Assembly: GCF_041886205.1 (NCBI RefSeq)
Contig: NZ_CP169031.1
Length of the DNA stretch: 64,000 bases
From: Escherichia coli
GTDB taxonomy: Bacteria > Pseudomonadota > Gammaproteobacteria > Enterobacterales > Enterobacteriaceae
Reading direction: 5' to 3' (one strand)
Shown one piece after another: positions 44,703 through 46,559 of the stretch. The number at the start of each line of letters is the position of its first letter. Position 1 is the first letter of the stretch. The notes under the pieces were generated by a model. The model saw nothing but the letters and a program-made list of their open reading frames with translations, was not told where the DNA came from and did no database searches. Position numbers and translations under genes: made by a program.

Positions 44703-45391
44703 GCTGCACCATCACCTTTCACTTTCATCAATGTCAGGTTTCCGCAAAATACGGCACCAGTGTCGATATAATGCTGATTCCAGAATGTCTTCGGGCTTTT
44801 CACCGGAGTGTGACCAAAGATAAAACGATCTGCGCCAGAAATTTCGCCACCAATATCATCCATCGAATAACTGATACGCTCGCGCGCCCAGACAACGTTG
44901 AAAAGCGGCACCTCCTTACCGAATTGATATTCATTATCCGGATAGTCGGCATGGGCTATAACGATAGTTTCTTGCCCGGTGTTCAACTCAATGATATAGG
45001 GCAGACGTCTTACCAGCTCCACCAGCGCCCTGGCTAATATTTCCTGATCAGTGTCCAACATGAAGAACCATTGTCCACCATTCATTAGCCAGTTATTCAC
45101 GTTGCCATCAGGACTTAACGCATCGAGCATCAACCGCTCATGGTTCCCCATCACTGCCCTGAACCAAGGCATCTGCAATAGTTCCAGACATTCGACATTT
45201 TCAGTACCGCGATCGATAAGGTCGCCGACCGATATCAGTAAATCCTGCGCCGGGTCAAAATGCACACGATGGAGTTCGGACATCAGTCTGGTGTAGCAAC
45301 CATGCAGATCACCAACAACCCAGACATTCCTGTATTTGGTACCGTCGATACGGTGATAAATTGTGGGTGCCATCATGTATTCTTCAGCCAT
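44699..45391 (-). CDS. ppp: Ser/Thr protein phosphatase (lambda-PPase-like metallophosphatase)
   Basis: Motifs GDLHGC, GDLIDRG, GNHE. Confidence 0.9.
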
Positions 45392-45999
45392 TCTTTAAGA
45401 GTCATCTGCGGAATACCTCCCATTTTCCCGCATGAAACAACGTCAATCTGTTCACGCGCAGACTGGAATAACAAAGGCAGGTGACTTAGATTTTTTGGCG
45501 TGCCGCCGGAGTGAACGCGTGGTTCTTGCGTAGCGTCAACGCCCACCAGGGCTACATGTTTGAATCCGATATGGAAAGCCAGGTTCAGAGCACCATATGC
45601 ACTATTGCCGCTGGCAATTTCATTCTCATCTTCGCAAAGGCCGAAATGTGCGGACCAGCGCCATGCCCACCACTCGGGAGAATTCGTATGTTTTGGCTCC
45701 GTGCCGCGTTCAGCCACACGACGGAAGCACAGAACGCCATCTCTGACTTCACGTTCTTTAACATCGGGTAGTGCCATGCAATAACAAACACCACGGCGAC
45801 GGCGGCCACGACCAACGCGCCGCATATTGTCTGGCGATGGATCAAGTGTGAAAAAATAAGAAGCGCGGTTAAGCCAGTCGATGGCCCCATTGACCGCTAT
45901 AATCGGCACTCCGCGCGGCGCAACAAAGTTTGCGGCGCTTGGGCCACTGCCGACGATAATAACGCGATCACTGCCTCTAAATTTATTCTTGGGAAACAT
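45373..45999 (-). CDS. hypothetical Rossmann-like protein, paralog A
   Basis: VIIVGSGPS...IIAVNGA...[26 protein letters not shown]; paralogous to the adjacent ORF. Confidence 0.55.
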
Positions 46000-46559
46000 T
46001 GAATTGCACTGCTCCTACTTGCATTCAAAATATGTAAATCTGCGTGTTTTTTGCGGGTATCCAGGAACTGCTGTTGCCATTTTGAAATAGACACCTGCGT
46101 TGGATTCCGTAGTGCTTGAGGATGCGCGCCATGCCAATGAAGGCCGTTTTGCAGAGAACAGTCATAGCCGACTAATACAACTACTTCAGCCCCTGATTCA
46201 GCCGCCAGACTGATAGCCTGCGCGCCGCTATTTACCCCTTCCGCCGGTCCACAATATCGCCTGTACTCCAACGAAAATGATTTCGCCGCCGCCAGGTTGG
46301 CTGTCACTTTGCGGAATCTCCCTCCCGGTATGGTGGATCCGTATTGCTTCCACCATGACAAATCACCGGCGTATAAGGCATAAATGTCATCGAACATCTG
46401 CCAGGAATTGTTAACCGCGATGATTGAACAGCCAGTTTTTTCTATAGCAGCACAGTCCTCACGAGTGAGTGACGGACCGCTACCGACACAAAAAACAGTC
46501 CTAGTCGCCCTGGGTGGTATGTTCATTCTCAGCTGCAAATTCAGCCTCCAGGCGAGCAT
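45897..46559 (-). CDS. hypothetical Rossmann-like protein, paralog B (start possibly at 46526)
   Basis: VFCVGSGPS...IIAVNNS...SGAQAISLAAESGAEVVVLVGYD; same motif order as paralog A. Confidence 0.55.
   Translation of the reverse strand: MLAWRLNLQLRMNIPPRATRTVFCVGSGPSLTREDCAAIEKTGCSIIAVNNSWQMFDDIYALYAGDLSWWKQYGSTIPGGRFRKVTANLAAAKSFSLEYRRYCGPAEGVNSGAQAISLAAESGAEVVVLVGYDCSLQNGLHWHGAHPQALRNPTQVSISKWQQQFLDTRKKHADLHILNASRSSAIQCFPRINLEAVIALLSSAVAQAPQTLLRRAECRL

Follow-up and report, generated by a model that had tools for sequence, protein, structure and literature searches.

What do pmgO and pmgP, two adjacent genes of phage P1, do? Their historical annotations read 'putative morphogenetic function' in P1 and 'head morphogenesis' in P7, where pmgO is named hdmB and pmgP hdmC, and the searchable literature contains no functional study of either gene. 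We analyzed both in a stretch of 64,000 nucleotides from Escherichia coli (contig NZ_CP169031.1 of assembly GCF_041886205.1; the whole stretch is termed the window), whose region 44000-47400 derives from a P1-type phage, being 98.4% identical to P1 (AF234172) and 97.6% identical to P7. The PmgO encoded here matches that of P1 at every residue, and PmgP departs from its P1 counterpart at three. Our analysis suggests, with a confidence somewhat above even, that the two proteins are a paralogous pair of Maf-like transferases which, together with the product of the nearby gene pmgQ, work in a glycosylation cassette of the lytic cycle. A sequence-only reading of the window had described two adjacent open reading frames (ORFs) of about 208 amino acids each. 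Its coordinates were exact and the length is right for PmgP, but PmgO has 220 residues and the two ORFs overlap by 103 nucleotides. For PmgO, a Met at residue 12 is a possible alternative start. The two genes and the codons of their glycine-rich loops are:

pmgP: 45373-45999, minus strand; 208 amino acids, putative glycosyltransferase of the MptE-like/Maf/GT42 fold (GT, glycosyltransferase family) and candidate hub enzyme of the cassette
pmgO: 45897-46559, minus strand; 220 amino acids with the annotated ATG, distant paralog of pmgP with the same fold, defined by its ORF
PmgP G17-S-G-P-S21 codons: 45937-45951, minus strand; predicted nucleotide-binding loop, from sequence and alignment
PmgO G26-S-G-P-S30 codons: 46470-46484, minus strand; predicted nucleotide-binding loop, the counterpart of the GNGPS loop in an alignment to CstII

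Relationship and fold of PmgO and PmgP

Both proteins contain the motif order that the sequence-only reading had pointed out, namely GSGPS (residues 17-21), IIAVN (33-37), GNSAYGA (131-137) and LVGVD (151-155) in PmgP and GSGPS (26-30), IIAVN (46-50), NSGAQA (110-115) and LVGYD (129-133) in PmgO. Direct comparison by BLASTP aligns no more than 36 residues at the N-terminus (39% identity, E 0.004), and from this result alone the similarity could have been that of a generic glycine loop. The family profiles, compared by hhalign after removal of the natural O-P fusion P0051 from the PmgO alignment, align over 163 columns (PmgO 17-202 versus PmgP 8-208) with a probability of 98% and an E-value of 1.5e-13, at about 23% identity on the profile level. 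Moreover, the hidden Markov model (HMM) of each family recovers members of the other with E-values of 1e-7 to 4e-5, and the PHROG cross-matches between the families are 2e-5 and 6e-4. Six columns are invariant in a joint alignment of 42 sequences from both families (P29, N50, D66, S111, G131 and D133 in PmgO numbering). The similarity is thus not confined to the glycine-rich loop, since the alignment spans 163 columns and N50, D66, S111, G131 and D133 lie outside the loop. Judged from these profiles, PmgO and PmgP are true paralogs that are homologous over essentially their full length.

The pair had further been explained by a tandem duplication, and here the comparison points elsewhere. There is no DNA-level repeat between pmgO and pmgP, the proteins find each other only marginally by BLASTP, and each has its own orthologs of 40-60% identity in other phage types. 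Phages of Enterobacterales and Pseudomonas that are P2-like, lambdoid or HK97-like carry these orthologs, again in the order O-then-P. By their divergence, PmgO and PmgP are anciently diverged paralogs, and any duplication is ancient and did not take place in P1.

AlphaFold2 models both as single-domain proteins of about 200 amino acids, with predicted local distance difference test values of 85.6 for PmgO and 94.6 for PmgP. The top Foldseek matches of PmgO are Maf (5mu5; E 1e-4, template modeling (TM) score 0.54) and CstII (1ro7; TM score 0.52), and for PmgP, too, Maf is the closest structural match. Solved members of the MptE-like/Maf/GT42 superfamily resemble PmgO and PmgP alike in three dimensions, and this similarity supports the nucleotide-binding fold proposed from the sequence, more precisely a Rossmann-like nucleotide(-sugar)-binding alpha/beta fold. 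The 'unknown activity' of that proposal can be narrowed by the MptE-like/Maf/GT42 sialyltransferase fold and by synteny and fusion with the GT8 protein PmgQ and with methyltransferases (see below). PmgO belongs to phrog_4603, 'alpha-2,3-sialyltransferase', at 4e-74. A merged profile of both families gives weak matches in the PDB, all of which are transferases of ulosonic acids activated by cytidine monophosphate (CMP), namely CstII, Maf, Cst-I and Lst; PDB sequence searches with PmgP alone or with the PmgP family profile returned nothing useful. The fold assignment is not new, since remote-homology pipelines already give PmgO and some PmgP relatives the label 'alpha-2,3-sialyltransferase', and PmgQ the label 'glycosyltransferase'.

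Maf shares with PmgO and PmgP the GxGPS loop and the positions of the Asp/Ser/Asp motifs, at 12-19% sequence identity. It is a cytoplasmic enzyme that transfers a CMP-activated ulosonic acid onto Ser/Thr of a self-assembling structural protein and is often accompanied by extender glycosyltransferases and methyltransferases. However, Maf has about 600 amino acids with N- and C-terminal flagellin-recognition domains, whereas PmgO and PmgP are catalytic cores of about 200 residues only, and their genes lie in phage late regions instead of near genes for flagellin or nonulosonic-acid biosynthesis. The GT42 enzymes CstII and Cst-I of Campylobacter jejuni, the source of the sialyltransferase label of PmgO in PHROGs and RefSeq, show the same motif order in family-profile alignments (GNGPS, C/V-N, TSG, G-I-D). 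In contrast to them, PmgO and PmgP have no match to Pfam CST-I and no evident lid domain or C-terminal membrane helix, and the acceptor of CstII is lipooligosaccharide. Since E. coli K-12, to our knowledge, has no CMP-N-acetylneuraminic acid (CMP-Neu5Ac), the name 'sialyltransferase' should probably not be taken literally.

Candidate active-site residues are N37, D53, S133, D155 and the invariant H173 in PmgP, and N50, D66, S111, D133 and the two invariant histidines H141/H143 in PmgO. The invariant D66/S111/D133 of PmgO and D53/S133/D155 of PmgP fall in motifs that hold the essential E324 and D415 of Maf and its conserved Ser, and the spacing from Ser to Asp is 22-23 residues in PmgO, PmgP and Maf (S334/D357 in CbMaf). 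As counterparts of the catalytic H188 of CstII, H173 of PmgP and H141/H143 of PmgO are candidates only. The invariance of the Asp/Ser/Asp set in both families, in the motifs of Maf's essential residues, argues that both paralogs are catalytically competent. It seems quite unlikely, then, that one paralog alone is catalytic and the other, most probably PmgO, acts as a non-catalytic scaffold or as an acceptor-specificity partner. Two of the loci surveyed below do have cassettes of P and Q only (L087 and L156), frameshifts in pmgO are frequent among natural P1-like plasmids and occur in L090 as well, and the O-P fusion implies a physical association. The same Asn/Asp/Ser/Asp set is invariant in both families, however, PmgO adds an invariant GYDCS...HWHG.H, and conservation in the PmgO family is concentrated at the putative active site.

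MptE, the archaeal 6-hydroxymethyl-7,8-dihydropterin pyrophosphokinase, and the thiamin pyrophosphokinases transfer a pyrophosphoryl group from ATP. That PmgO and/or PmgP should be such pyrophosphokinases, or other ATP-dependent enzymes with a small molecule or a sugar intermediate as substrate, is improbable in our view. The Pfam family that the two proteins match is indeed named for MptE, but the sequence matches of the merged profile are to sialyltransferases only, and no pterin, thiamin or folate genes lie nearby. Instead of a cofactor pathway, the partners are glycosyltransferases, with consistent synteny and fusion to GT8, GT-A, GT2 and methyltransferase domains, which points to transferase rather than pyrophosphokinase chemistry.

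Relative to PmgO, PmgP carries an insertion of about 35-70 residues within residues 56-128 (window about 45616-45834). An Arg-rich loop and a Trp-rich helix that hardly varies (SPEWWxWRW) form part of this insertion, which could be an acceptor-binding or a membrane-interface element.

The O-P-Q cassette across phages

The third conserved member of the cassette, and an additional gene found in some loci, are:

pmgQ: 44001-44702, minus strand; 233 amino acids, predicted GT8 glycosyltransferase (glycogenin-like, retaining)
gene 'R': 9254-9835 in L086, 11757-12335 in L003, 7555-8139 in L093 and 8222-8797 in L097; about 192 amino acids, with a W(L/V)D(V/C)D motif

PmgQ belongs to phrog_1962 ('glycosyltransferase'). 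In the PDB its family profile matches the Skp1 alpha-galactosyltransferase Gat1 (6mw5, E 8e-7) and glycogenin (about 1e-4), and its best matches are protein-directed GT8 enzymes (Gat1, glycogenin and GlyE), not LgtC. Invariant residues are D79 and D81, which form a DxD motif, and H208, G209 and P213 in the motif H208-G-x-P-R-P; the likeness to glycogenin and Gat1 consists of the DxD and a C-terminal H-G-x-(K/R)-P-W motif. PmgQ is shorter than these enzymes and lies below the Pfam GT8 cut-off. On the strength of the profile matches, PmgQ is a glycogenin-like GT8 transferase.

An exhaustive search with the PmgP profile yielded 611 representative relatives, 104 of them with an E-value below 1e-30, and a search for loci with the PmgP family alignment yielded 14 outside P1. 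All non-P1 loci examined have O, P and Q grouped together, or only P and Q (L087, L156). The usual order is O-P-(R)-Q, and O-P-Q synteny extends over at least nine distinct phage types. Recurrent additional enzymes are a second GT-A family ('R'), a GT2 enzyme and an S-adenosylmethionine (SAM)-dependent methyltransferase. 'R' has only a weak match to Pfam Nucleotid_trans and no PHROG match; from its motif it looks like an unclassified GT-A glycosyltransferase family. Natural fusions join O to P (P0051), P to Q (P0179 and P0247), Q to P (P0269), Q, P and a methyltransferase (P0229), and a methyltransferase to P (P0265). Such Rosetta-stone fusions indicate that the O, P and Q enzymes act together and that PmgP is their hub. 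Taken together, the matches and gene neighborhoods make it probable that O-P-Q is a glycosyltransferase cassette. Two further relatives, P0296 (395 amino acids) and P0298 (423 amino acids), combine a PmgP-like domain with a C-terminal domain that resembles a third, more divergent MptE-like unit (LGSARC ... TLHPE ... SGSSG..A ... VVLCG.P.D).

In HK97-like prophages of Pseudomonas and Ochrobactrum and in a metagenomic relative, the cassette follows the major capsid gene directly (L086/L089, L095) or one gene further on (L087). The contig L168 has a Q-P-methyltransferase fusion between the large terminase and the major head protein. Terminase or portal genes adjoin the cassette in L093, L096 and L085, and lysis genes do so in L003, L097 and L004. 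It lies after the terminase-portal operon in a P2-like phage, between lysis genes and terminase or between antiterminator Q and lysis genes in lambdoid prophages, and after the lysis cassette in a phage with a P22-type portal; a Serratia prophage remnant carries it as well. Integrase and immunity genes, the usual surroundings of the LPS (lipopolysaccharide)-modifying genes of lysogenic conversion, are absent among the annotated neighbors in the loci whose flanks were scanned. Gene order, the most informative line of evidence in this analysis, thus places the cassette in late regions across phage types.

For P1 itself the term 'late pmg cluster', used in the sequence-only reading, is loosely right and imprecise. 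The operon pmgN-pmgO-pmgP-ppp-pmgQ is annotated with a sigma-70 promoter and an operator of the C1 repressor; it is a separate, C1-controlled operon located between the tail genes and pmgR/S. Its remaining parts are:

ppp: 44699-45391, minus strand; lambda-type Ser/Thr phosphatase, Pfam PF00149 (Metallophos) at 6e-16
pmgN: 46501-46656, minus strand; 51 amino acids, first gene of the operon, specific to the P1 group
Oppp (Op83): 46700-46716, plus strand; C1 repressor operator upstream of pmgN, from the P1 annotation, with identical sequence in the window

Since Oppp is conserved upstream of pmgN in the window, the operon is expected to be repressed in the lysogen and derepressed on induction. 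Scanning the region for promoters and terminators gave no useful information.

The published genetics bear on the older view that the genes serve virion assembly. In-frame deletions of pmgN, pmgO, pmgP, ppp and pmgQ caused no plaque or antirestriction defect, and knock-downs of pmgO, pmgP, ppp and pmgQ by CRISPR interference (CRISPRi) were neutral. The assembly role for which the sequence-only reading had suggested knock-outs therefore finds no backing in these phenotypes, and 'morphogenetic' in the sense of an essential assembly function is not supported. Together with a recent tandem duplication of a generic Rossmann protein and a link to ppp, such a role is very improbable. What speaks for it are the morphogenesis annotations of P1 and P7 and the position next to ppp. 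It is already largely refuted by the deletion phenotypes and by comparative genomics: each paralog has separate, widespread orthologs with no repeat at the DNA level, deletions and knock-downs plate normally, neither PmgO nor PmgP was reported in the P1 virion proteome, and outside P1-like phages the cassette contains no ppp. A decorative or ecological function would be expected to be dispensable under laboratory conditions.

Donor, acceptor and competing readings

In the glycosylation cassette that we favor, PmgO and PmgP would each use the GxGPS loop, the Asn of AVN and the (N/T)S(G) motif to bind a CMP-activated 2-keto-3-deoxy (ulosonic) sugar, and would transfer the sugar through the conserved Asp pair. 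[quoted passage not shown] Neither P1 nor its relatives carry sugar-biosynthesis genes and all named cassette hosts are Gram-negative LPS producers, so that host CMP-Kdo is the only donor of this class that would be universally available. Maf enzymes in E. coli O-glycosylate Ser/Thr with Kdo from endogenous CMP-Kdo, and phage DNA glycosyltransferases likewise use host Kdo. We nevertheless propose an ulosonic acid, or CMP-Kdo, as donor only tentatively and by analogy. PmgQ would next add a hexose from a sugar activated by uridine diphosphate (UDP); in other phages the glycan would be elaborated by additional GT-A or GT2 enzymes and by SAM methyltransferases. Because the three enzymes are found naturally fused, O, P and Q probably form one complex. 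Expression would occur in the lytic cycle, not in the lysogen.

As acceptor, a virion (head) protein of the phage appears the best candidate, in analogy to the O-glycosylation of flagellin by Maf and to capsid glycosylation in mycobacteriophages. It is favored because the cassette repeatedly lies beside capsid and terminase genes, and a protein acceptor is favored because the best matches of PmgQ are protein-directed GT8 enzymes. By itself, a virion acceptor is possible rather than likely. In the mycobacteriophages Corndog (gp35-38) and Che8 several glycosyltransferase genes, with or without an O-methyltransferase gene, lie within or beside the head genes, and relatives of PmgOPQ occupy equivalent positions. 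The mycobacteriophage enzymes are not found in virions, have been proposed or shown to glycosylate capsid proteins, and provide a precedent for a dispensable cassette. They belong to other enzyme families (no Maf-like member has been reported), act in Gram-positive-type hosts, and their glycosylation has been demonstrated, whereas the P1 cassette is known from its genes. Glycosyltransferase genes, with or without a methyltransferase gene, inside a virion structural operon occur in L086/L089, L087, L095 and L168; in P1 they form a separate operon.

Several points weigh against the reading that we favor. In P1 it lies outside the head operon. The adjacency to lysis genes and the basic, Trp-rich insertion of PmgP fit a membrane or LPS acceptor equally well, and GT8 includes LPS core transferases. 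Similarity to WaaZ, the Kdo-III transferase of the LPS core of E. coli K-12/R2, is negligible (for PmgP 11.8 bits against a cut-off of 200; hhalign probability 12-14%). The matches to Pfam PF01973 (MptE-like) are 20.9 bits for PmgP and 23.4 bits for PmgO, below the cut-off of 34.6; since the relatives P0051 (44.6 bits) and P0218 (44.1 bits) exceed it, the two families sit on the border of PF01973. Catalytic residues were mapped to Maf by motif and spacing, not by structural superposition. Finally, the P1 virion proteomics paper reported no modification and looked for none, and the 2026 cryo-electron microscopy study (3.2-3.5 Å), in which most P1 virion proteins were modeled, does not mention glycans and did not look for them. 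The full proposal, that P1 and many Gram-negative phages O-glycosylate their own virion proteins with a Maf-like pair and a glycogenin-like GT8, initiated by Kdo and fed by host CMP-Kdo and UDP-hexose, is doubtful as a whole.

Some of the same evidence can be read as remodeling of LPS or another envelope glycolipid, with PmgO and PmgP adding inner-core Kdo in the manner of WaaZ and PmgQ acting like the GT8 core transferases WaaO and WaaJ. In the lytic phase nascent LPS would be altered, and the P1 receptor (the terminal core glucose) could be masked or truncated in this way, which would keep progeny from being lost on debris or would exclude superinfection. The donor of WaaZ (TIGR04437/PF27901) would be CMP-Kdo, which is the host's sole ulosonic donor. 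WaaZ shows a faint likeness in the G-loop and in the motif A..A..LG..I..G.D, with faint WaaZ_KDO_III matches to the P domain. The presence of LPS core transferases in GT8, the Gram-negative, LPS-producing nature of all named hosts and four cassette sites adjoining lysis genes fit this remodeling too. O and P are basic (median isoelectric points 8.3 and 8.9), and the Arg-rich loop and Trp-rich helix of PmgP (residues 59-70 and 108-115) are of a type found in membrane-interface proteins; isoelectric point and Trp content do not discriminate between a membrane and a protein acceptor. No glycan has been reported on P1 virions. According to its title, one study found that WaaZ overexpression truncates the outer core (Frirdich 2003). 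Nevertheless, we regard an LPS target as rather unlikely, although it is a serious rival to a virion protein. Known LPS-modifying genes of phages are lysogenic-conversion genes that lie beside the integrase and are expressed in the lysogen, whereas this cassette is C1-repressed in P1 and is found in late modules, often those of the head. LgtC is not among the best PDB matches of PmgQ. The WaaZ similarity is far under any threshold: faint matches overall reach 11.8-20 bits, PmgO has no match to TIGR04437, whose equivalog cut-off is the 200 bits mentioned above, and direct comparison with E. coli WaaZ is insignificant. WaaZ itself is chromosomal, is encoded in the waa operon and acts on LPS. Moreover, the cores of the hosts are very different, and the acceptor would have to be restricted to the Kdo/lipid A region.

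Glycosylation of phage DNA as a base hypermodification that evades restriction has least in its favor and is hardly probable. Phage DNA glycosyltransferases can put Kdo and other LPS sugars from host donors on 5-hydroxymethylcytosine (5hmC), and expression in the lytic cycle would suit them. However, no 5hmC-generating enzymes (TET/5mYOX, hydroxymethylase) and no kinases accompany the cassette in the loci examined, the known DNA glycosyltransferases have other folds, including GT-B, and the deletions left antirestriction activity unchanged. P1 DNA is also what we take to be a classical substrate that is unmodified apart from methylation.

Surroundings, natural variants and significance

The adjacency to the phosphatase gene ppp, as described from the sequence, is real in the window. 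In the non-P1-like loci examined ppp never lies between O, P and Q, and a functional link between cassette and phosphatase was therefore discarded; the P1-like locus L106 has an ORF of 224 amino acids at the ppp position. In L169, an unrelated metagenomic phage contig, a Metallophos gene (5747-6592) stands on the opposite strand beside a cassette of O, a P-Q fusion and a methyltransferase, an echo of the P1 arrangement that is probably coincidental. BLAST found no match to pmgN adjoining the cassette in other loci, and PmgN was rejected as a cassette member for this reason. Knock-down of pmgN (46501-46656) by CRISPRi was scored as essential (efficiency of plating 1.4e-2), yet its in-frame deletion is viable; since knock-downs of the downstream pmgO, pmgP, ppp and pmgQ are neutral, simple polarity does not explain this result.

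The two main genes overlap as follows:

pmgO 3' end/pmgP 5' end: 45897-45999, minus strand; 103 nucleotides, with the pmgP frame shifted by -1 relative to that of pmgO

The ATG of pmgP is embedded in the conserved C-F-P-R codons of pmgO in P1 and in enterobacterial-type relatives. The overlap measures 40-109 nucleotides in these relatives and only 11 nucleotides in Pseudomonas loci. Within it the pmgO frame continues through the codons for the first strand and the Gly-loop of PmgP. Because this part of PmgO, its tail beyond about residue 203, shows no conservation, the long overlap appears to be largely incidental read-on rather than dual coding. P1 has a canonical-looking slippery heptamer, A_AAT_TTA, in the pmgO frame (45978-45984, minus strand), at which a -1 slip would join PmgO 1 to about 196 onto PmgP from residue 8, similar to the natural fusion P0051. 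Programmed frameshifting to an O-P fusion was rejected, since the heptamer occurs in none of the relatives and the recurrent T_TTC_CCN merely reflects the C-F-P codons; a heptamer of this pattern is expected by chance in about 13% of random overlaps of 100 nucleotides.

Natural P1-like plasmids often carry a frameshifted or N-terminally truncated pmgO (P0002, P0003, P0012, P0014 and P0016), and some clusters of such variants contain 48-173 members. At L090 (6466-7013) pmgO is split into two ORFs, and phage phi456 has an IS1 (InsB) in the region. These variants suggest relaxed selection on pmgO in some lineages.

The G+C content is about 0.51-0.52 across pmgO and pmgP (window 45200-46700), against 0.45-0.48 in the flanking genes, a mild rise that is consistent with a horizontally acquired cassette. 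The RefSeq name 'norphogenetic protein' goes back to a typing error in the 2004 P1 annotation of pmgM ('putative norphogenetic function'; window 46723-47301); it has become the family name of hundreds of PmgP and PmgO homologs and carries no information. Neighboring genes (window 46723-47549 and 41857-42363) likewise encode non-morphogenetic folds: PmgM is VRR-NUC/Holliday-junction-resolvase-like, PmgL is a DksA-like zinc finger protein (phrog_54) and Pap a PNKP-type HAD phosphatase.

As far as we know, and within the searchable literature, the demonstration that PmgO and PmgP are paralogs, the recognition of O-P-Q as a conserved mobile cassette with natural fusions, its placement in late or head modules across phage types and the Kdo-glycosylation hypothesis are new. 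The labels of pmgO and pmgP have been empty for twenty years, and three orphan genes of P1 can now be tied to a concrete hypothesis that is inexpensive to test, since strains with the in-frame deletions are available. If virions were indeed glycosylated in a Kdo-initiated manner, this would be the first native system that links Kdo glycans to proteins, as well as the first pathway of virion glycosylation outside actinobacteriophages, overlooked in the most-used transducing phage of E. coli. A virion target would extend phage glycan shields beyond mycobacteriophages and would bear on immunogenicity in phage therapy and on P1-based delivery vectors; an LPS target would reveal a lytic-phase mechanism of receptor masking. 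With either target, compact Maf-like cores of 200 amino acids could serve as enzymes for glyco-engineering.

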